Below are positions 4,021-62,516 of a DNA stretch of 64,000 nucleotides, piece by piece (positions within the stretch are counted from its first letter, which is position 1; each line of letters opens with the position of its first letter). The notes beneath the pieces were generated by a model. It had not been told where the DNA came from. It saw only the letters and a program-made list of their open reading frames with translations, and did no database searches. Where the stretch lies: NCBI GenBank assembly GCA_964434285.1, contig CAYSUJ010000001.1:168703-232702 (forward strand), in the 5' to 3' direction. Made by a program: the position numbers and the translations under genes. The DNA is from an uncultured Candidatus Saccharibacteria bacterium. GTDB lineage: Bacteria; Patescibacteriota; Minisyncoccia; Phycocordibacterales; UBA2100.

Positions 4021-4353
4021 GGGTCACAAATATTTTACTAACTGTGGAGATTGTACCGCAGAGTTCGAAGGAATTTTCAGATGCCTCCGATCTGATGCGT
4101 ACGCGCGGAGCGCGTGCTGGCTTTGACCCAACGAGGTACGCTTCTACTGCGCTGAAGCACCGCCCGCCGCGGTAAGCGGAGGCAACCCCAGGGATCCGCT
4201 TCTTGCATTCCTGATTCGGCGGGGTGAATTCAAAATGCATTTTCAATAAAGAAAGGTGAATCCGTGGGGTTCTGCCTTTGAGGCAGGGGGGGGGGCGAGG
4301 ATGCAAAAAGAACAAATCGCCTCAAGTCTCAAGAAATGAGGCGATTTGACAGA

Positions 4354-4746
4354 TGATTTATAATTTTCTTGTGTACCGTCCCTCCAAGAGGTCCATGATG
4401 CCCTTGTATTCGAGTGAATATACCGAGCGCAAGAACAAACTGACCTCCGAAAAGCGGACGCTGGACGCTGGAGGAGGAATTGAGAGATTTTGAACGAAAA
4501 GGCACGCAATGGCTCGAACTCATGCGTAATTGGATTTTAGAGGCCAATCAAGCCAAAAAATTGTCGCAGGGAGACAATTTTGACGAAATGCGAAATTTCC
4601 TTCAAGGCATCGGCTCGAACCGCCGCATAGCGACGGGGATTCTCATGGGGGAATTCAAAATGCCGTGGCATTTCCTTGCGGAAATGCCCGTCCATGCGCG
4701 CGGCCCTGCCGCGCGCGGGTTGCGTTCTTCGTCAAATCAAATTTAG
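4354..4746 (+). pseudogene. decayed coding remnants: two frame-shifted ORF fragments (47 aa, then a TTG-start 88 aa) carrying an internally duplicated GEFKM(H/P)-HF segment
   Basis: Frame A ...TERKNKLTSEKRTLDAGGGIERF stops, and frame B continues LEEELRDFERKGTQWLELMRNWILEANQAKKL. A 17-nt motif GGGG-GAATTCAAAATGC occurs at about 4217 and 4647, each time encoding GEFKM. Confidence 0.25.
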
Positions 4747-21357: not shown

Positions 21358-21429
21358 TTCCGCGGTAGCTCAATGGTAGAGCAGCTCGCTGTTAACGAGT
21401 TGGTTGTAGGTTCGAGTCCTACCCGCGGA
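21358..21429 (+). tRNA. tRNA-Asn (anticodon GUU)
   Basis: Acceptor TCCGCGG/CCGCGGA, D-arm GCTC-AATGGTA-GAGC, anticodon stem GCTCG/CGAGT with loop CT-GTT-AA, T-arm GTAGG-TTCGAGT-CCTAC, discriminator G; no CCA encoded. Confidence 0.85.
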
Positions 21430-22990
21430 GCACGACAGGATGAGAGGAGCCGAAAGGCTCCTTTTGTCCAATGTTTGCAACCCTTTTTCGCGGTTCTGAA
21501 ATCTTATTGAGCCTTGGCACCCAATTTGCCAAGAAATCGAACGCTAAAGTGTACTCCGGTTTGATCTCACGACCCTCAAGAGCGATGGTCGAGAATGCGT
21601 AACTCAACAACAGCCGCCGATCATCCGTCGTGGCGTCTTCGCTTTCGTAGATTTCCTTGGCGACGGATGCAAGTTCGTGTATCGCATATCCGGCTTCGTA
21701 GTATTTCCTGTTGCCTTTGTTGAGGCGTGCGATTTCATTGGTTGCATCTTCTTTCTGCGCACTGTATTGCTTGAAGAGACGGTCATACGTCTCGACGCTG
21801 ATCTTGCCGTCTAGCTTGTCTTCGTACAGCGCTTCGAGCCGGCGCTGGGATCGCTCAATCGTCATGTTCAATTCCGCAAGCTTTGAGTTGAAGCGTGCTA
21901 TCTCATCCACGTGGCTTTCTTTCAGCGCTTCATTCAGAACATCTAAGACACGCTTGTTCTTCGGTGCAACCTTGAGCAACATCGGGAGCAATTTCTCTTC
22001 CACCTTTTCCTGTCGGACGAAAACGTGACGTTGTTCGCATTTTTGATCCATTCCCGCACGCTTATAGCCGTTGCAATGACCGTACCAATGACCTTTCTGT
22101 CGTTCCCATGTGACGGAGCCGCCGCAAGTCGTGCAGCACATCTTCGCCTTGAATACCGGAATGTGTTTATTGAATTGCGGCTGGTTCAACGTGCGGCTGA
22201 GAAGTAGTTGTACGCGATCGAACAATTCGCGGCTGATGAGACCCTCATGCTTTGCCGGCATGACATCGCCCTTCCACCTGAGGGCGCCATAATAAAACGG
22301 ATCCCTAAGCAAGTCGTACATTCTGCTGCGGCCGACCTTCTTTCCCGCATGATTGCGCAAACCCTCGTCGTACATCGCTGCGGAGAGATTTACGACCGAG
22401 TAATTTCCAGAGGAGTACAACTCAAACATTTTCCTGAGAAACCGAGCCCGAGCCTCGTCGATTACATGGATTTTGTGCCCTTTCTCACCGATGGTCTTGT
22501 ATCCGAGCGGCGGTTTTGTCGGCAACCAGCCCTGCGCGATCTTTTCCTTCTGCCCCTTCTTCACTTCTTCGGAGAGGTTCGAGATATACTTTTTCGCGAG
22601 AACAATCTCGATATCCCAGCGAAACTTCTCGTCGGACTTCGCTTCCTTGTGAATGACCAGATTCTGTTTTACGAAATGAACTTTGCGTCGAGCGTCCGCC
22701 TCGATCCAATCATTGACGGCGACCGCATCTTTCATGTTGCGCGTAAGACGGTCTACCTTTTCACACAAAAGATTGCTGATCTGGTGCTTTTCCATGTAGC
22801 GCATCATCTCGTAGAAGACGGCACGCTGTTTCGATCCGCTAGCCGATTCGGAGATCGAAAACACCTTTACGATCTCGTACTGTTTTCGCGCCGCGTAGTC
22901 AGCGAGCAGCTTCTCCTGCGCCGGCAAAGAATATCCGGCCTCCTCTTGCTCCCGCGAACTCACACGTGCGTACACCAACGATTTCTCCAT
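21419..22990 (-). CDS. large serine recombinase (integrase): resolvase-type catalytic domain YARVSSREQ, recombinase domain, zinc-ribbon CxxC...C, coiled-coil tail
   Basis: The catalytic Ser motif lies in YARVSSREQ. The 523-aa length and Cys cluster (CCTTCGGS...HWYGHCNGY) are typical of large serine integrases. The stop overlaps the 3' end of tRNA-Asn. Confidence 0.85.
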   Translation of the reverse strand: MEKSLVYARVSSREQEEAGYSLPAQEKLLADYAARKQYEIVKVFSISESASGSKQRAVFYEMMRYMEKHQISNLLCEKVDRLTRNMKDAVAVNDWIEADARRKVHFVKQNLVIHKEAKSDEKFRWDIEIVLAKKYISNLSEEVKKGQKEKIAQGWLPTKPPLGYKTIGEKGHKIHVIDEARARFLRKMFELYSSGNYSVVNLSAAMYDEGLRNHAGKKVGRSRMYDLLRDPFYYGALRWKGDVMPAKHEGLISRELFDRVQLLLSRTLNQPQFNKHIPVFKAKMCCTTCGGSVTWERQKGHWYGHCNGYKRAGMDQKCEQRHVFVRQEKVEEKLLPMLLKVAPKNKRVLDVLNEALKESHVDEIARFNSKLAELNMTIERSQRRLEALYEDKLDGKISVETYDRLFKQYSAQKEDATNEIARLNKGNRKYYEAGYAIHELASVAKEIYESEDATTDDRRLLLSYAFSTIALEGREIKPEYTLAFDFLANWVPRLNKISEPRKRVANIGQKEPFGSSHPVVLRG

Positions 22991-24883: not shown

Positions 24884-25339
24884 ATGGAACACAAACATAT
24901 TTGGGACAAGGTTCTCGGCTCTAACGAGCATGTGAAGTACGAATTTACGGTGGGATCGCAGTATCGAATGGTCGGTTTGGTCGGTTTATCAGTCATCGGT
25001 CTTTTGAGTTTCTTCTGGCTCTGGCAGATGGCGATATTCATTATTGCGATCGCCCTCTTTTATTACGGTTTCTACCTCAAAGCAGCGAACGCGTACGCGT
25101 TTACCGACCGCCGCGTACTGGTCCATCAAGGCTGGCTATCTACCCGCATGATCACGACGGAGTATCAAAAGATTACCGATGTGACAGTCCTCGAGCCTCT
25201 CATCCAGCGCCTTATATTCGCCTCAGGAACGCTTGTAGTGAACACGGCGGGCTCCAAGACCGAGGAGATCGTTCTCAGCAACGTCGAGCGCCCCTACGAG
25301 CTCAAGAAGAAGTTAGACGAGATGCGTGGGCACCACTAA
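24884..25339 (+). CDS. membrane-flanked bacterial PH-domain protein (bPH_2 / YdbS-YdbT-like)
   Basis: Two TM helices, then AYAFTDRRVLVHQGWLSTRMITTEYQKITDVTV.EPLIQRLIFASGTLVVNTAG, the typical bPH_2 pattern. ATG at 24884. Confidence 0.55.
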   Translation: MEHKHIWDKVLGSNEHVKYEFTVGSQYRMVGLVGLSVIGLLSFFWLWQMAIFIIAIALFYYGFYLKAANAYAFTDRRVLVHQGWLSTRMITTEYQKITDVTVLEPLIQRLIFASGTLVVNTAGSKTEEIVLSNVERPYELKKKLDEMRGHH

Positions 25340-25687
25340 ACGCAGATCGGACTCTTGTTCCAAGCCGGAATAAGAAGGGGGTTCAGGTTCTGGAGGATAA
25401 CCAAGAAGAGGTGGGAGTTTAGCTTCCACGCGCCTACGTATCCATATTACCTCTCTAAAGGCTTTCAAAAAGTGCGGATGGATAAAGACAAAATGCCGCC
25501 ACTGCTTTTTAGTCACTCCTGCTGCTGCGAGACAACGTTTTAGATTCTGCCCTTGCCATCGCGCCATGATGATGGCCAGGACTTTACTGCTGTTCGACCA
25601 CCATGCTCTGTCGGTTTTCATTATTTCCAAGCCCTCAAAACCCGGCTCTTGAATGCTGTAGCCCGCGGTTCGATGTAATTTGCGCAT
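25313..25687 (-). CDS. hypothetical protein, possibly a degraded mobile-element gene
   Basis: Basic, low-complexity C-terminus; converges on and overlaps the bPH gene; no confident motif. Confidence 0.2.
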   Translation of the reverse strand: MRKLHRTAGYSIQEPGFEGLEIMKTDRAWWSNSSKVLAIIMARWQGQNLKRCLAAAGVTKKQWRHFVFIHPHFLKAFREVIWIRRRVEAKLPPLLGYPPEPEPPSYSGLEQESDLRLVVPTHLV

Positions 25688-25726
25688 GTCCTTACAGTAC
25701 TACGTACTAAGGCGCATAAATCCACA

Positions 25727-25940
25727 ATGGGCACTTATATAGTTTCTTCGAAAATGTGGGAAAAGTAGACAAAAGTCAGACCCGAATCTCGTAAATACTG
25801 GACGTATCATGGGCACTTTTAGCACATCGGTACTTCTGGCGGAATGCGACTTTGGGCACCTTTTGTGGAGATCACTGCACCTAGTGCAGTAAGGTCTGTC
25901 ACTAGACTCAATCGTCTCCTCGTGGCACGCTGATGGGCAC
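25727..25940 (+). promoter_or_regulatory. four direct repeats of TGGGCAC(T/C) at 25727, 25810, 25853 and 25934 (the last overlaps the kinase ATG), plus the palindrome CTGCAC-cta-GTGCAG at 25875-25889
   Basis: Read directly: aTGGGCACTTatat, aTGGGCACTTttag, tTGGGCACCTtttg, gaTGGGCACCatg. Confidence 0.35.
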
Positions 25941-27942
25941 CATGCTTTCTGAAATCAACGGCTACAAAACTAAGCCCGAGTGGTTCATCGGCAAAGGCAC
26001 TTTTGGTTCTGTATACAAGGCTGAAAAGGACGGTAAATTTTACGCTATCAAAGTATTCCAGTCGGAATTACTGCAAACGGAATACAGGTCTCGTATTGAT
26101 CAGGAAATCAAAGCAATACAGAAGATTTCACACCCGAACGTCGTGAAGCTCCACGACTATGGCACGTTCAAGGAGAACGACTTTGAGTACTTCTACACAG
26201 TGATGGATTTAGTTGAGGGACAACCGTTGAGTGATTTTGTTGGCACAGTAAACGAAGAGCGTAGTATTGAAATTATTGAATCCATATTGGATACAAACAC
26301 TTCCGTGCATGCGACCGGCATCATCCATCGTGATCTGAAGCCTGCGAATATCATGATCGATAAAAGTGGAACGCCCATCATCCTTGATTTCGGACTTGCG
26401 AAACTGATCGATTACAGTTCGATTACACAAACCGGCGAACGTGTCGGCACGTACTATTACATGTCGCCGGAACAAGTGACTGACAGTAAAAATATTGACG
26501 AGCGATCGGATTACTTCGCAGTCGGTATTATTTTCTACGAAATGCTTACAGGCGTGACTCCATACGACGCGACAAATCTGCCGGCACTCATCGACCAGAT
26601 AAAGAACGTATACCCGAAAAATCCTTCGGAGCGAAACGCGAGCATCACTAATCAGACCGAGAATGTGATCCTGCGCTTGCTCGAAAAAGCACCTCATCGA
26701 CGATTTCAAAATACCGCCGATGTCGTAAACGCTCTCAAAGAGATTCCGGAGGAGCGGCCAAAGAAACTTGATCTTTCAACGCGATATTTTGTTCGTCTCC
26801 AACATACAGAAAAAACACTGTTCGAAGACGCACTGAAAGCCAACTTGATTGACCGCGTTATCTTTCCCGCAAATTTCTTCAAGTTCTATCACCACACCGT
26901 GGACGTGTTGCGGAATTCAAAGATCCCGTTCACCACTGATCCGGCCACAAACCGATTGACATACACCGCTTTCTCAAAAACAGCGGGCGTTCAGGAACTT
27001 CCTTATTCCTCCGGGGACGAGGTGACGCCGATACAAAAGAAACATTTCCACTCCATCACTCAGGTCCAAGAGTTCGTTGCAAAAGTAATCACATTTCAGA
27101 TAACGAACGGCGTTACCGAACTTGCCGCGCCTTTCTTTTTTGCAAAAGACTCCGATGATGACTGGTTTAGTATCGACCTGAAACTGCTCAAAGAAGCAAT
27201 CGCGTACCGCGACCAACACCATCCTGACATGCCAATCTGGGGAGGAATCTGCATGAATGTTGAGAATTGGCACGACGACGAAGAGAAGAACAAAATCCTG
27301 AACCACTATGTAAAAGCGGCTCCCGATGGCTTCTTTGTATACGGCGATCCGATCGGCAACCAATCGAACCTGACCCAGTTGTTCCACTACGGCGATCTCC
27401 TCAAAAAATTACAAGCATCGGCCCAAGTCCCGGTAATCGCTTGCCGTGTAAACGGTCTCGGTCTCATTTATTACAGCAACGGTGTTTCTGGTCTCTCATC
27501 AGGCATTGCCGCGCTCGATAACTTCCGAGAAGGAATTTTATCCGATACCCAAGACGGATATTCGATGGATCCTCGCTACTATGTTCCCGAACTTCTTACG
27601 ATGGTCTCGCTCAAAAAAGGCGTCACGACAAAACTCAAAGACCTTGCCAATTCCAGTGTCGGTAAGAACTTTTCCTGCAAATGCCCACATTGCAAAGGCA
27701 TCCTTACCTCCGCGTCACTCTCGACGCGAGCGATGAAATTGCACTTTTTACATGTGCGTCGTGCGGAATTGGCGGAACTAGAGGCGCTCAAGCCCGAGGA
27801 ACGCCTGGACCACATGGAAAAACGAGTTGCGCAGGCAATCAGCTACAGTAAAACCTTATCGAAGGAAAATATTGAGGTCGGTGATTTCTCGCATCTTGGC
27901 ATGTGGCTCACTCTGATCCAGCAATTCAAGAAGCATAGCTGA
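25933..27942 (+). CDS. eukaryotic-type Ser/Thr protein kinase domain (residues 1 to about 270) fused to a roughly 400-aa C-terminal domain of unknown function containing a CKCPHCKG zinc-knuckle-like motif
   Basis: Gly-loop GKGTFGSVY, VAIK-type YAIKVF, catalytic loop HRDLKPANIM, DFGLAK, SPE-like MSPEQ. The C-terminal 400 aa match nothing I recognise. Low-GC gene. Confidence 0.8.
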   Translation: MGTMLSEINGYKTKPEWFIGKGTFGSVYKAEKDGKFYAIKVFQSELLQTEYRSRIDQEIKAIQKISHPNVVKLHDYGTFKENDFEYFYTVMDLVEGQPLSDFVGTVNEERSIEIIESILDTNTSVHATGIIHRDLKPANIMIDKSGTPIILDFGLAKLIDYSSITQTGERVGTYYYMSPEQVTDSKNIDERSDYFAVGIIFYEMLTGVTPYDATNLPALIDQIKNVYPKNPSERNASITNQTENVILRLLEKAPHRRFQNTADVVNALKEIPEERPKKLDLSTRYFVRLQHTEKTLFEDALKANLIDRVIFPANFFKFYHHTVDVLRNSKIPFTTDPATNRLTYTAFSKTAGVQELPYSSGDEVTPIQKKHFHSITQVQEFVAKVITFQITNGVTELAAPFFFAKDSDDDWFSIDLKLLKEAIAYRDQHHPDMPIWGGICMNVENWHDDEEKNKILNHYVKAAPDGFFVYGDPIGNQSNLTQLFHYGDLLKKLQASAQVPVIACRVNGLGLIYYSNGVSGLSSGIAALDNFREGILSDTQDGYSMDPRYYVPELLTMVSLKKGVTTKLKDLANSSVGKNFSCKCPHCKGILTSASLSTRAMKLHFLHVRRAELAELEALKPEERLDHMEKRVAQAISYSKTLSKENIEVGDFSHLGMWLTLIQQFKKHS

Positions 27943-28618
27943 TGTACCTGTTCAACATCATCTCCTTAGCGTAGAGACTGACCGTGGTCTCGTAATTTTG
28001 GTTCACGGGTTGAGGATGTCGTATTTCAATTTCATTTGTCTTTTCGTCAAAAAGAATGAGCCCAATGTTGTGTCTATTGAATTCGTCAAAATCGATATTC
28101 TTTTCGGCTTCTTTTAGAATGGCAAGGTAACTCTCATCTGCAAAATATTGATAGCGACGAGCTTGAACCAAACCGCCGCGATGATCGTTCAACTTGACCT
28201 CAACAGCAATAATTTTTTGAATCGGGTTGAACGACTCTTCAATGGTCCGAATATATGCATCGTCAACTTTTGCGAGATATTCATTAGCAAGTAACACTCG
28301 TAGCTGCTTTTGCATATCCCTCGCATCACTGTTTGGAAATATTTCCAGTAGTTCACCGAAGGAATATATCCGCTCATTCTCCAAACCAAGCAACAATTGA
28401 AGACTACCAAAGCTGGTTAGTGGCGTACGATCAATGATTTTCTTTTTGAATGAGAAATCCGGCGCAAATACGAGATCAGCGATGCCGTAGCCTGCGGAGA
28501 ATTCATGAAACGCAAGATTGGTACCGAATTCTTTTTTCAGAATTCGATCAAGCTTATCAACGAGTGCCCTTTCGTTGCGCATGGTCGTAATGATAAGTGT
28601 AAATGATAAACGACGCAT
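27926..28618 (-). CDS. hypothetical protein with a possible restriction-endonuclease-like (PD-(D/E)XK) core: ...KVDD...(20 aa)...IIAVEVK...Q..RYQY
   Basis: The motif assignment is tentative. The 3' end overlaps the 3' end of the kinase gene by 17 nt in convergent orientation. Confidence 0.35.
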   Translation of the reverse strand: MRRLSFTLIITTMRNERALVDKLDRILKKEFGTNLAFHEFSAGYGIADLVFAPDFSFKKKIIDRTPLTSFGSLQLLLGLENERIYSFGELLEIFPNSDARDMQKQLRVLLANEYLAKVDDAYIRTIEESFNPIQKIIAVEVKLNDHRGGLVQARRYQYFADESYLAILKEAEKNIDFDEFNRHNIGLILFDEKTNEIEIRHPQPVNQNYETTVSLYAKEMMLNRYISYAS

Positions 28619-31545: not shown

Positions 31546-31816
31546 ATCTTCGCAAGTACAATCACCGGAAAAGCCCTGCGTTGCGACAAAATGCCCCTGT
31601 GCGCGATTAAACCGTCCTTCTCTAACTCAATGTTAAAAGTCCACGTATTTGGCGCGTTGCGACCTCTGGGTCAGGGAATGCTTTAGCCCAATCGTACGTT
31701 CTGAACGCAACCTGCCAAGCGAGCAAGGTGTTGGTGTGAAAGCGACCCATCCCCGTCCGAAAGGACGGGGATGGTCGTTTGTTGCCGTCGCAAGAGCATG
31801 GAAGTATGCTGCAGCG

Positions 31817-32254
31817 ATGGCAGCGACCAAACACGCTCCAATATCCGAAGAGGCCGTCAAACGCGCCGTAATCAAGTTTCTGACCAACAAGGGCTGGAGC
31901 AAGAATCTCGATTACAACGACCTTCGCGTGCATGGAGTGGATATAAAAGTGACGAATGCAAAATATCGACGAACTTTCTTCATTGAAGTTAAGGGTTCCT
32001 CAAACGGCAGAAGCGGCGCGGAAGTGGCTTTCGTGTACTCTTTGGGACAGATCGTCACCCGAATGAAAAGTCTGAAAGCTCGATATTATTTCGGGATAGC
32101 GCTCCCTACTCAAGCAGCCTCGATAGCTCTCAGACGTATCCCTTACCAATTTGCGATAACGACCTGCCTCCATGTCTTTTCCGTTGATGTTAAGGGGGTA
32201 GTGACGTGGTACAAACCAGCAGATATCAAACGGCTACAACTGATGAAATCGTGA
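31817..32254 (+). CDS. small PD-(D/E)XK nuclease-fold protein (HGVDIKV ... FFIEVKGSS)
   Basis: D-x13-E-V-K core with flanking hydrophobic strands. ATG at 31817; the upstream part of the ORF listed in the track is discounted. Confidence 0.45.
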   Translation: MAATKHAPISEEAVKRAVIKFLTNKGWSKNLDYNDLRVHGVDIKVTNAKYRRTFFIEVKGSSNGRSGAEVAFVYSLGQIVTRMKSLKARYYFGIALPTQAASIALRRIPYQFAITTCLHVFSVDVKGVVTWYKPADIKRLQLMKS

Positions 32255-32260
32255 GTCTCA

Positions 32261-33920
32261 CTATTTCATTGCCTTATTTGAGATGCCGAAAAATCGGTCA
32301 AAGAAGCCTGTGAGCTTGTTGAGAACGGTCTCCCGCTTCTGTGAACGCTCGCCGCTCGCTGAGAAGCGAGACACCGGCGGCAACACCTTCGTGAGCGCTG
32401 TCCCCGTGGTAGCGACGGCACCATCTCGGAAGGCATTTTGGACGAACGCGTAGGTGGCGTCATGGTCAAGGTTCTCGTCCTTGATGATTTGATCCAGTTC
32501 TTCTATCTTTTTTTCCTCAACATACCTTTGCCAATCCTCGTCGACCACAGAATTCGCATCGAGTGACGAGATGAACTTATTGATGAGGTCTTTCTTGTTG
32601 CGCAGCTCGACACTCGAATCAATTGCTTTGTTGATGTCGATCAGGAGCTCTTTATTCTTGGTATGGTCTTCGTGGTACTTCTTGATGAGGGCGAGGATGT
32701 AATCGATATTTATCTCAATCTGCTTAATGAGCTCCATCTCGAACACCAGATCGTCGTTGATGTTTTCCTTTTCCTTGTCGAGGCTTGTGCGAAACTCGTT
32801 GTACAGATCGATGTACATGCTGTGGTAATCCTGTAAGTCTCTCGCGGAGAGTATTTCGTTCCCTACAAACTGATCGAAGGTCACCAAGATATTCCGCACA
32901 CGCAAGACAGCACCGTACAGTTTGATGAAGTCCTTCTGGTTCTGTTCACCCATGATGCGCTCGCCCACAGGGAACTTCGCCAAGAGCTCATCAACCAAGC
33001 TCTTATATCCGCGCACTTCCTTGTTGCGCTCTTTGTAGCCGTTGTAGTAATCCTCATACGCCTTAAGCAACACAATGCCGCTCGCTTCTTTGTCGCCAAA
33101 GAGCGCAATTGCTTCATTCGTCGCTTTCTCCAGGTTGCGGAAACAGACAATATTTCCAAAGGTTTTTATGCTGTTGAGGATGCGATTAGTTCGAGAATAT
33201 GCCTGCAGTAATCCATGGAGTCGCAGATTCTTGTCTACCCATAGGGTGTTGAGCGTCGTCGCATCAAAGCCCGTTAGAAACATGTTGACCACGATGAGGA
33301 TATCAACCTCGCGATTCTTCACGCGCTCGCTCACATCCTTGTAATAGTTCTGGAACTTGTCAGACGAGGTGTCATAAGACGTGCCGAACATTTCGTTGTA
33401 GTCGGTAATGGCGCTCTCCAAGAAGTCCCGCGAGCTCGCATCAAGCCCGCTGGTGTCTTCGGAGTTTTCATCGATCATTCCGTCAGCATCCTCATCATTA
33501 ACCCCGAAGCTGAAGATCGTTGCAATCTTTAATTTCTTGTCACTCGGCACCTCTGCAAGCTGTTTTTTGAACTCCGCATAATATTTCTTAGCGACATCAA
33601 TGGAAGATACGGCGAAGATTGAATTGAAGCCCGCGAGCCGTCGATCTTTCAGCTTGTAAAAGCTATTGCGCTTCGTCTTTTGGTCGAAGTGTTCACGTAT
33701 ATAGCGCACGATATTCTCGAGTCGTTCCGGTGAGGCGAGAGCAGCTTCACGATCGATACCACTCACTTGTTTGTCCTCTATGTCTTCCGCTTCACGGATG
33801 GTGGAGACGTAATCTACCTTGAAAGGCAGCACATTTTTATCCGCGATGGCGTCCACAATCGTGTACGTGTGGAGTTTGGTGCTGACCCGAGTCCCAAATC
33901 TTAGACACGCTTTCTAGCGA
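32261..33920 (-). pseudogene. hsdR: type I restriction enzyme R subunit (HsdR), C-terminal roughly 550 aa only; the reading frame stays open upstream past the GTG at 33856 until it hits a stop at the IS3 border
   Basis: Helicase motif VI region ...VNMFLTGFDATTLNTLWVDKNLRLHGLLQAYSRTNR plus the HsdR C-terminal domain; no N-terminal nuclease or helicase motifs I-III; the IS3 element abuts its 5' side. Confidence 0.7.
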
Positions 33921-33950
33921 CACCATTATTCGCTAGCATACGTACCACGT

Positions 33951-34205
33951 ATGAAAAAGCATCGCATAGCTCCTGAGGTAAAGGAGCAGATTATCAATCG
34001 CATCAAAAACGAGGGGGTCTCGGTGCAACAGGCTGCCACAGAACATGGCGTCACGACATCCACAATATACGCCTGGATCGGGGCGAAGGTGGAAGGAGGT
34101 CCGTCAGTGATGGAGATCGCGAAACTCCGAAGGGAGAACGAAGAGCTCCTCAAGATGATCGGGATCCTCACCATGAAGCTCAGCGAGTCCCAAAAAAAGA
34201 AGTAG
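33951..34205 (+). CDS. IS3 family transposase OrfA (HTH)
   Basis: See the mobile_element entry. Confidence 0.8.
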   Translation: MKKHRIAPEVKEQIINRIKNEGVSVQQAATEHGVTTSTIYAWIGAKVEGGPSVMEIAKLRRENEELLKMIGILTMKLSESQKKK

Positions 34206-34210
34206 CACGC

Positions 34211-35020
34211 ATGGACGCACTCACAAAGAGTGCGCGCGCAAAGCTTGTCGGTGTTTCTCGTGCCTCGCTCTACTACTACCACAAGATGGAGGACAAGGAT
34301 CACGCGCTCAGGCGTGATATTGAGGGTGTCTTGCGTACCCGCGCAGGGAGAAGCTACGGATACCGCCGTATAGCCGTCGCACTCCGCATCAACGAAAAGC
34401 GCGCACGCAGAGTCATGCGCAAGTTTGGCCTGAAGCCGTACCGAAGACGAGGCAAGAGATACTGCAGAGCAAAGCCGCAGAATGAAGTGTATCCGAACCT
34501 TCTTCAGTTGGTCACACCAGCGTATCCTGGCTGTGTCTGGGTTGCAGACTTTACCCATCTCAACTACCGAGGCATTGATGTATCGGTGGCCACGGTGCTC
34601 GATGTGTACTTGAGGAAGATTGTCGGCATCGCGGTGGGCACGAAGCACGGCGCGCCGCTCATTACAAGCGCCTTTGGCAACGCACTCCTCGCACACGGGA
34701 GACCGGCCATCTTCCACTCAGACAATGGTAGCGAGTATCATGCCGCATCGTTTCGCATGCTCCTTGTGAACCTCGACATCGCCATCTCATGCTCGAAGAA
34801 GGGCTGCCCGTGGGAGAATGGGTATCAAGAGAGTTTCTACGACAAGTTCAAGAACGATCTTGGCGACCCTTCACGCTTCAACTCACTGGGTGAACTCACT
34901 GCGGCAATCTACGAGACCATGCACGTCTACAATACCGAGCGCATTCATTCTGCGCTCAAGATGCCGCCACATCAATTTGCACTCGCGCACGCCGCTGCTA
35001 CACTACACACACGTCATTAG
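34211..35020 (+). CDS. IS3 family transposase OrfB (DDE integrase core), expressed as an OrfAB fusion by a -1 frameshift
   Basis: DDE motifs D(FTHL)...D(NGSEY)...E(NGYQES). Confidence 0.85.
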   Translation: MDALTKSARAKLVGVSRASLYYYHKMEDKDHALRRDIEGVLRTRAGRSYGYRRIAVALRINEKRARRVMRKFGLKPYRRRGKRYCRAKPQNEVYPNLLQLVTPAYPGCVWVADFTHLNYRGIDVSVATVLDVYLRKIVGIAVGTKHGAPLITSAFGNALLAHGRPAIFHSDNGSEYHAASFRMLLVNLDIAISCSKKGCPWENGYQESFYDKFKNDLGDPSRFNSLGELTAAIYETMHVYNTERIHSALKMPPHQFALAHAAATLHTRH

Positions 35021-61831: not shown

Positions 61832-62215
61832 ATGAAAGGCTCATATGTGGATGGATTTGTGTTTCCGATTCCGAAGAACAAAGTCGCTGCTTACAAGAAA
61901 ATGGCGGAGTGGGGCATGCGCACGTGGATGAAGCATGGCGCGCTCGCGTATTACGAGTGTCAGGGCGACGATCTCGTGCCAAAGCCGATGGGCGACATGA
62001 AGCAGCGCTCCTTCAAAGAGCTCGCGAAAGCGGGACCGAACGACACTGTCTGGTTTTCGTTTATCGTCTTCAAAGACAAAAAACACCGCGACGCGGTGAA
62101 TAAGAAAGTCATGACTCAGATGGAGAAGGAATCAAAGAAATGGGAGGGCGTCCCTATGCCAATGGATCCAAACAAAATGGCGTACGGTGGATTTAAGGCG
62201 GTGGTGAAGAGGTAA
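61832..62215 (+). CDS. DUF1428 family protein
   Basis: MKGSYVDGFVFPIPKNKVAAYKKMAEWGMRTWMKHGALAYYEC. Confidence 0.6.
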   Translation: MKGSYVDGFVFPIPKNKVAAYKKMAEWGMRTWMKHGALAYYECQGDDLVPKPMGDMKQRSFKELAKAGPNDTVWFSFIVFKDKKHRDAVNKKVMTQMEKESKKWEGVPMPMDPNKMAYGGFKAVVKR

Positions 62216-62220
62216 CAGAA

Positions 62221-62250
62221 GGTGCCGGGAAAGACCGGCACCTCTTCGTT
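62221..62250. terminator. GGTGCCGG-gaaaga-CCGGCACC followed by TCTTCGTTC
   Basis: Perfect 8-bp stem between convergent genes. Confidence 0.5.
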
Positions 62251-62516
62251 CAAAGATCTGCATCGCACCTATCGGCAAGATCCCAGATCTTTAATTTCTC
62301 CTCTTCCGTGATGTTGCGGGGATTCAGATGTCCATCGAGAACAAGCCCGTGGATCTTGACGACGAACCAGCCCGAATTAAACATGAAGCCAGCTCTTCTG
62401 AGTGTCATAAATTCCATGACCCCATCGACAAACATCAGATACTGAGGAAACTCGATTTCAGTCTGCGACGCTGGTCGCGACCGCTCGTTGAGCCGATCAT
62501 CTGCTGCATTTCCCAT
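62250..62516 (-). CDS. hypothetical protein
   Basis: ORF only. Confidence 0.25.
   Translation of the reverse strand: MGNAADDRLNERSRPASQTEIEFPQYLMFVDGVMEFMTLRRAGFMFNSGWFVVKIHGLVLDGHLNPRNITEEEKLKIWDLADRCDADL

Follow-up and report, generated by a model that had tools for sequence, protein, structure and literature searches.

A kinase–TGT-like fusion protein and a predicted PD-(D/E)xK nuclease form a conserved, mobile gene pair: a candidate conflict module of candidate-phyla and other bacteria

Enzymes of the tRNA-guanine transglycosylase (TGT) family have recently been tied to immunity, through DNA modification in the Dpd system and through deazaguanylation by Cap10 in type IV CBASS (cyclic oligonucleotide-based antiphage signalling system). 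Here we analyse a two-gene locus within a 64,000-nt stretch of DNA (the window; contig CAYSUJ010000001.1, positions 168,703 to 232,702) from an uncultured Candidatus Saccharibacteria bacterium, in which a Hanks-type Ser/Thr kinase is fused to a divergent TGT/DpdA-superfamily barrel, and the fusion gene converges on a gene encoding a predicted PD-(D/E)xK-fold nuclease. With a little more confidence than doubt, we read this locus as a compact, horizontally moving two-gene conflict module of a restriction-like or abortive-infection-like kind. The pair would then be a mobile, nucleic-acid-targeting conflict system composed of known folds but undescribed as a pair, with a meaningful chance of new chemistry.

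The locus resembles Dpd in that a TGT-like enzyme is coupled to restriction, but it consists of only two genes: DpdB (a ParB-like ATPase), DpdC, DpdD-K and the preQ0-synthesis genes are absent from the loci whose genes and open reading frames (ORFs) were inspected for Dpd and CBASS components (further loci were only scanned with two family profiles). It also differs from Dpd by the fused kinase, by a guanine-recognition Asp that has no counterpart here, and by the lack of any sequence-level similarity. The likeness to type IV CBASS lies in the recruitment of a TGT fold to immunity, yet no Cap9 (QueC-like), CD-NTase or CBASS effector was found in the inspected loci, and the partner is a PD-(D/E)xK nuclease. 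Unlike the bacterial and archaeal TGTs (TGT, ArcTGT, QTRT1/2), the domain described here is recognised neither by Pfam TGT nor by a sequence search of the PDB, differs in its pocket residues, and has its gene on mobile elements, with a nuclease as partner and a kinase as fused domain. A Hanks kinase domain is also found in PD-T4-6, in MADS (methylation-associated defence system; MAD6) and in type 2 BREX (bacteriophage exclusion; PglW), but these differ in C-terminal domain and partner gene, other MADS or BREX genes are absent, and the PADLOC match to PD-T4-6 spans aa 18-283 only, leaving the C-terminal domain unmatched and the protein outside that system. The neighbour shares its fold and an E…D…ExK motif with type II and type IV restriction endonucleases and with XisH/DUF1052-type PD-(D/E)xK proteins, and the convergent two-gene layout is akin to that of many restriction-modification cassettes. 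It differs from restriction endonucleases in that no methyltransferase accompanies it, in a winged helix placed between core strands two and three, and in matching no Pfam, NCBIfam or PADLOC family. The initial annotation of this DNA, made from the sequence alone, assigned the pair to no named system, and PADLOC, NCBIfam, Pfam and PHROGs indeed gave no match to the full system. These libraries, current to 2023-2026, name neither the TGT-like clade nor the nuclease, and the full-text literature, which is incompletely covered, describes no kinase–TGT fusion, no pair of a TGT-like and a PD-(D/E)xK protein, and no defence system combining a kinase with TGT/DpdA.

The two genes and their principal features lie at the following window positions:
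25942..27942, forward strand: kinase–TGT-like fusion gene, likely start ATG 25942 (MLSEINGY, 666 aa)
25987..26709, forward strand: Hanks-type protein kinase domain (aa 19-259), Pfam Pkinase E 5e-50
26770..27939, forward strand: TGT-superfamily (β/α)8-barrel domain (aa 280-669)
26938..26940, forward strand: Asp336 (D57 of the domain, motif TDPATNR), candidate TGT general acid/base, conserved in 122/122 sequences
27676..27744, forward strand: putative zinc site C582-x-C584-x-x-C587 ... H604 (CKCPHC ... KLHFL), from conservation
27926..28582, reverse strand: nuclease gene, likely start ATG 28582 (MRNERALV, 218 aa), chosen against homologs
27926..27942, no strand assigned: tail-to-tail overlap of both genes, 17 nt

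Both ORFs first described here, one of 669 aa overlapping one of 230 aa tail to tail by 17 nt, were recovered together with the overlap at 27926-27942. The fusion ORF opens at ATG 25933 (25933..27942, forward strand, 669 aa), and the start at ATG 25942 is favoured by the homologs, which are 663-669 aa long and share the N-terminal consensus MxxxINGY; the nuclease ORF in full covers 27926..28618 on the reverse strand (230 aa). Since each gene belongs to a conserved family (at 90% identity, 98 clusters for the kinase fusion, almost all of 663-669 aa, and 151 clusters for the nuclease), we consider both to be real. Between the two families, about 50 pairs have longest contigs of equal length.

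The 400 C-terminal residues of the fusion protein had been described as being of unknown kind and matching nothing. The second statement holds for family models, as aa 280-669 have no match in Pfam, NCBIfam, PADLOC or PHROGs, but the fold can be assigned: the C-terminal domain is a divergent TGT/DpdA-superfamily (tRNA/DNA-guanine transglycosylase) domain, a (β/α)8 barrel of TGT type with the zinc motif of the family. Its closest structural match is bacterial tRNA-guanine transglycosylase, and Cap10 is the weakest of five TGT-family matches. Membership does not extend to the sequence level, neither with respect to Pfam TGT, which did not match the domain at E<0.1, nor to solved TGTs, a profile of the TGT-like domain yielding 0 matches among PDB sequences at E<10. 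The CKCPHCKG knuckle noticed earlier is present and is the putative zinc motif of the TGT family, CxCxxC…H: across 122 aligned fused proteins (that of the window and 121 relatives), C582, C584, C587 and H604 are retained in 119-120, and the pattern is identical in the E. coli and Z. mobilis TGTs, with a shorter spacing to the His here (17 versus 26 residues).

Alignments by hhalign with the E. coli or Z. mobilis TGT are colinear and statistically weak (E 0.42 and 0.015; the E 0.015 alignment to E. coli Tgt carries a probability of 3%), and the residue equivalences drawn from them are therefore tentative. With this low confidence, D57 aligns with E. coli D89 (TDSGGFQ, the general acid/base), PDGFFVYGDPIG pairs with TGT FDGYAVGGLAVGE, and GIAALD250 pairs with GIDMFD264, the TGT nucleophile (QTRT1 D279); one clade has a Ser at the D250 position and a Glu four residues earlier. 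The FDEC segment of TGT, which contains D143, falls on a gap beside the invariant P121-F122 of the domain. From these comparisons, the domain seems to have kept the putative zinc site and at least one pocket aspartate, in a pocket that does not look suited to guanine or 7-deazaguanine. A host tgt gene, wanted for a better profile, was found in none of the fetched loci.

The initial annotation had tentatively seen a PD-(D/E)XK-like core in the neighbouring 230-aa ORF, and the fold and its catalytic residues bear this out: the neighbour is a predicted PD-(D/E)xK-fold nuclease with an inserted winged helix-turn-helix (wHTH), displaying an αβββαβ core with E…D…(D/E)xK residues. Invariant in 44 homologs are E39, D48 (GIADLV), E140-x-K142 (AIEVK) and the QARRY helix, and the E/D/ExK residues are also invariant in partners from other phyla and in partners of kinase-less genes. 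No Pfam, NCBIfam, PADLOC or PHROGs family matched the neighbour, and its profile gave weak wHTH hints only against PDB sequences. In a Jorgensenbacteria locus (L009:7320-7823; related loci carry L numbers), the nuclease homolog is 167 aa long, lacks the C-terminal ~55 residues and lies ~150 nt from the kinase gene; being short and set apart, it may be a decaying copy.

The two genes proved to be conserved together, adjacent in every fetched fused locus with intact flanks. A nuclease homolog adjoins the fusion gene in 20/20 fused-type loci with sequence beyond the fusion gene (these include three pairs of duplicate fetches), and adjacency is also seen in L024-L026, on a Priestia megaterium plasmid and in L085-L089. 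The pair is convergent in bacteria of the candidate phyla radiation (CPR), in Priestia and in L013, L014 and L016, with 3' ends that overlap by 4-36 nt in the convergent CPR and Priestia loci (L001, L002, L004, L005, L024-L026, L029, L085); in L015 (Nitrospirae), L017 (Aminicenantes) and L020 the two genes are co-directional and either overlap or abut. There is no conserved third gene, the flanking genes varying among loci, and small helix-turn-helix (HTH) genes precede the kinase gene in some lineages only.

The family extends beyond the fusions. A domain-only profile, built from trimmed database proteins and run against 1.84 billion representatives, recovered 886 clusters at 50% identity, 313 of them at E<1e-10, which fall into two length classes of ~670 aa (fused) and ~390-430 aa (standalone, kinase-less). 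The standalone proteins belong to no known family in Pfam, NCBIfam, PADLOC or PHROGs, and their alignment is too diverse for a pattern scan. In each of the four standalone loci that were fetched, the TGT-like gene adjoins a nuclease homolog (E 1e-14 to 1e-26). Because the kinase-less genes keep the nuclease partner, the conserved, ancestral unit is the TGT-like gene with the nuclease, to which one large clade later added the kinase at the N-terminus. The proposal of a kinase-plus-effector pair was thus right about genes conserved together and wrong about the conserved core, to which the kinase is an addition.

The kinase itself is complete, as had been stated: all of the quoted motifs (GKGTFGSVY, AIK, HRDLKPANIM, DFG, SPE) are found in the ORF. 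K40, E58, D134, N139 and D152, which are the VAIK lysine, the αC glutamate, the HRD aspartate, the catalytic-loop asparagine and the DFG aspartate, are each retained in 121-122 of the 122 fused proteins, and the fusion kinase therefore looks like an active enzyme under selection. The top PADLOC matches, PD-T4-6 (E 3.8e-69) and mad6 (E 4.7e-56), are confined to the kinase region (aa 18-283), the NCBIfam scores to PknB, MAD6 and PglW all fall far under their cut-offs, and the resemblance to PD-T4-6, MAD6 and PglW is about equal to that to the housekeeping PknB. Since the PADLOC similarity stops at the kinase domain and the NCBIfam scores are sub-cut-off, this is a generic Hanks kinase, outside any named defence family.

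A setting among mobile and defence genes, already suspected from the window, was found across the family. Recurring in the flanks are genes for recombinases of the large serine or the tyrosine type, for a relaxase, and for TrbC, TrbL, VirB4 or TraG, all plasmid matches to the family are mobilizable or conjugative, and the flanks also include restriction-modification or toxin-antitoxin islands. The hosts comprise Levyi-, Woese-, Vogel-, Jorgensen- and Nomurabacteria, Eiseniibacteriota, Nitrospirae, Acidobacteriota, Aminicenantes, Deltaproteobacteria, Bacillota and Actinomycetota, and this spread across phyla indicates horizontal transfer of the module. No phage record or viral contig with the family was found in the viral collections. 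In the window, there is an overlap between a tRNA-Asn gene (21359-21431, forward strand) and the 3' end of a reverse-strand gene for a large serine recombinase (21419-22990; 523 aa), which suggests an element integrated at tRNA-Asn; the pair lies in the region bounded by this tRNA and recombinase, with a truncated HsdR and an IS3-type transposase nearby.

How such a module might work can be sketched as follows. The barrel belongs to a kind that would flip a nucleotide base into its pocket, and the TGT-like domain may read or alter bases in nucleic acid, either marking self DNA or recognising foreign or modified nucleic acid. This step would license the partner nuclease as the DNA-cleaving effector, by a logic akin to that of a restriction-modification, Dpd-like or abortive-infection system. 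The fused kinase would add a layer of phosphorylation, gating the nuclease or acting on cellular or invader proteins, which stand-alone defence kinases have been reported to phosphorylate. The module would ride as cargo of plasmids and integrative/conjugative elements (ICEs) and land in defence islands. Since the module has only two genes and one copy sits on a plasmid of Priestia megaterium, in a strain that can be cultured, the hypothesis is directly testable.

Several points weigh against this reading. The role of D250 as nucleophile rests on the weak alignment described above (E 0.015, 3%), the position is acidic (D or E) in 108 of the 122 fused proteins, and it falls in a loop with a low predicted local distance difference test (pLDDT) score, so that the TGT-like domain may be a non-catalytic binder. 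In the same weak alignment, the Asp that reads guanine or 7-deazaguanine (E. coli D143, Cap10 D122) has no counterpart. No preQ0-synthesis or DpdB/DpdC-like genes lie beside the pair in the inspected loci, which argues against a classical Dpd-type modification. For distant standalone homologs on Gordonia and Clavibacter plasmids, no nuclease neighbour could be detected, and their partner may for this reason be a different one. Moreover, we infer the defence role from association with defence and mobile genes only, and the same goes in full for what the kinase would do.

Other explanations share part of this evidence. The pair could be a toxin-antitoxin-like addiction module stabilising the ICE or plasmid, with the nuclease as toxin, with the TGT-like protein (alone or joined to the kinase) counteracting it through binding, phosphorylation or protection of the substrate, and with no primary anti-phage role. 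We consider this unlikely, although a self-contained unit of two overlapping genes on plasmids and ICEs would fit it, as would the insertion of one cassette in a ribosomal operon, a typically selfish behaviour, and the frequency of other toxin-antitoxin genes (HEPN/MNT, HicA, RES/Xre, PIN) among the neighbours; for an antitoxin, an enzyme-like barrel of 390 aa whose pocket residues are conserved, together with a conserved kinase, would be elaborate. Addiction is, besides, compatible with defence, and restriction-modification systems serve both. We find it improbable that the pair serves the establishment of conjugative elements or anti-restriction, the TGT-like domain exchanging bases in the element's own DNA, as reported for phage DpdA, or the kinase disarming the defences of the recipient, while the nuclease would attack competitor or recipient DNA. 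In L024 and L004 the pair does lie amid genes for coupling proteins and type IV secretion systems (T4SS), every plasmid match is conjugative or mobilizable, and phosphorylation by the phage T7 kinase is reported to disarm bacterial defences. Yet the chromosomal islands of the window, the flanks of L085-L089, L033 and L002 contain neither T4SS genes in the stretches examined (for the window, all ORFs within the island and, to its right, ORFs of at least 200 aa) nor base-precursor genes, self-protection would leave the obligatory nuclease partner unexplained, and no phage in the viral collections carries the family.

Two further readings were weighed. That the domain, like Cap10 in type IV CBASS, acts on a nucleobase carried by a protein, possibly the kinase or the nuclease, whose activity the modification would control, strikes us as quite improbable, given that the QueC-like partner (Cap9) and a CD-NTase are absent from every locus inspected and that the structural match to Cap10 ranks last among the TGT-family matches. 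Least credible, and in our view very improbable indeed, is a role in housekeeping, the protein modifying tRNA under the control of its kinase and the neighbour having nothing to do with it: the top structural match to bacterial tRNA-guanine transglycosylase speaks for it, but Pfam TGT and PDB sequences do not match, the phyletic distribution is patchy and tied to mobile elements, the linkage to the nuclease is kept in both gene orders, and the guanine-recognition Asp is without counterpart.

Within the favoured reading of a conflict module, a bolder and on present evidence rather unlikely version would make the locus a new class of immunity, in which a TGT-like enzyme independent of preQ0 and queuosine exchanges or excises a base as the trigger, amounting to a kinase-gated two-gene 'base-exchange restriction' spread by conjugative elements. 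If true, a self/non-self step in DNA or tRNA would be wired to a eukaryote-like kinase and a dedicated endonuclease, across many phyla including ultra-small candidate-phyla bacteria. More generally, a large, unannotated clade of TGT-like proteins, partnered by a nuclease and often fused to a kinase, would add a third, mechanistically distinct use of the TGT fold to those of Dpd and Cap10, would connect bacterial Ser/Thr phosphorylation with nucleic-acid chemistry at the level of the base, and would join a small number of candidate defence modules that are characteristic of genomes from the candidate phyla (Patescibacteria).

Upstream of the fusion gene, the following elements were located:
25728..25941, forward strand: four TGGGCAC(T/C) direct repeats, spaced 82, 43 and 81 nt apart, from a motif scan
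25874..25890, no strand assigned: palindrome ACTGCAC-cta-GTGCAGT, ~50-70 nt 5' of the kinase start

The four TGGGCAC(T/C) copies listed in the initial annotation are all present, at 25728, 25810, 25853 and 25934, the first of them shifted by one from the position given there (25727, where ATGGGCAC starts) and the last just 5' of the likely start codon at 25942. A fifth TGGGCAC copy lies at 25327, and all five of the 64-kb window are confined to 25327-25941. In simulations, any 7-mer occurred at least four times in the 258-nt spacer with P 0.002, that is ~0.5 events expected per 64-kb window; the significance of the cluster is therefore borderline, and a post-hoc pick of these repeats is not compelling. 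Elsewhere in the window, a 7-mer scan found GGGGGGG four times in a poly-G-rich stretch (~4051-4500) and TCAAAGA four times at ~62001-62260. We also considered the array as a conserved operator and rejected it, since it is absent from the upstream regions of 19 related loci, where no analogous array of at least three copies exists either; it is specific to this locus and not a feature of the system.

The perfect palindrome CTGCAC-cta-GTGCAG was found as reported, with arms extending to ACTGCAC/GTGCAGT. The closest relative, L026, shares the 19-nt core, ACTGCACCTAGTGCAGTAA, without change, its arms there reaching 13 nt; L025 and all other loci compared lack it. As a widespread element it was discarded, the 49 exact metagenome matches including none near the gene pair and being consistent with chance. 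The palindrome may be a lineage-specific operator, with the wHTH of the nuclease as a candidate binder. Another motif, CGTGGCA, ~20 nt 5' of the conserved start codon, is common to the window (25905-25945) and its two closest relatives (L025:5510-5545 and L026:925-960), whose spacers have otherwise diverged, and could be a promoter or an element of the 5' untranslated region.

Some individual loci illustrate the variety of settings in which the family resides. An identical kinase–TGT protein (P0033) occurs in at least 56 assembly blocks (L085:4480-9657, also L086-L089), and in the five places shown its pair directly follows a trio of HTH, EcoRI-type methylase and GmrSD_N/HNH genes, forming with nearby HEPN/MNT and HicA genes a compact defence island. 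At L033:5701-8302, a four-gene cassette (a 91-aa ORF, a standalone TGT-like gene, a PIN_3 gene and a nuclease homolog) has landed in an unusual site, inside a ribosomal-protein operon between rpsJ (S10) and rplC (L3). The mobilizable Priestia megaterium plasmid p6_CACC119 (NZ_CP140272.1; L029:6116-8785), from a cultured Bacillota host, carries a fused gene of 677 aa and a convergent, overlapping nuclease gene of 223 aa, beside a 'damage repair protein' gene, a YolD-like gene and an FtsK/SpoIIIE gene. The proteins of this pair have the accessions WP_322552809 and WP_322552810, and the host would lend itself to experimental work. On the actinobacterial plasmids (L030:6367-10078 and L031:2698-5017), the distant standalone TGT-like genes adjoin Xre/MbcA-type antitoxin genes, accompanied on the Clavibacter plasmid by a RES toxin gene, and in Gordonia one TGT-like gene lies beside a gene annotated 'phosphotransferase'.

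In the window itself, only the C-terminal half of a type I restriction HsdR remains (531 aa; EcoR124_C and T1R_D3 domains), beside an IS3-family transposase (together 32261-35020; orfA 33951-34205, orfB 34211-35020), and HsdR was probably disrupted by this IS3 element. A 201-aa ORF at 31649-32254 has a weak match to NOV_C, a PD-(D/E)xK-like domain (E 1e-3), and is a second possible nuclease-fold gene of the same island.

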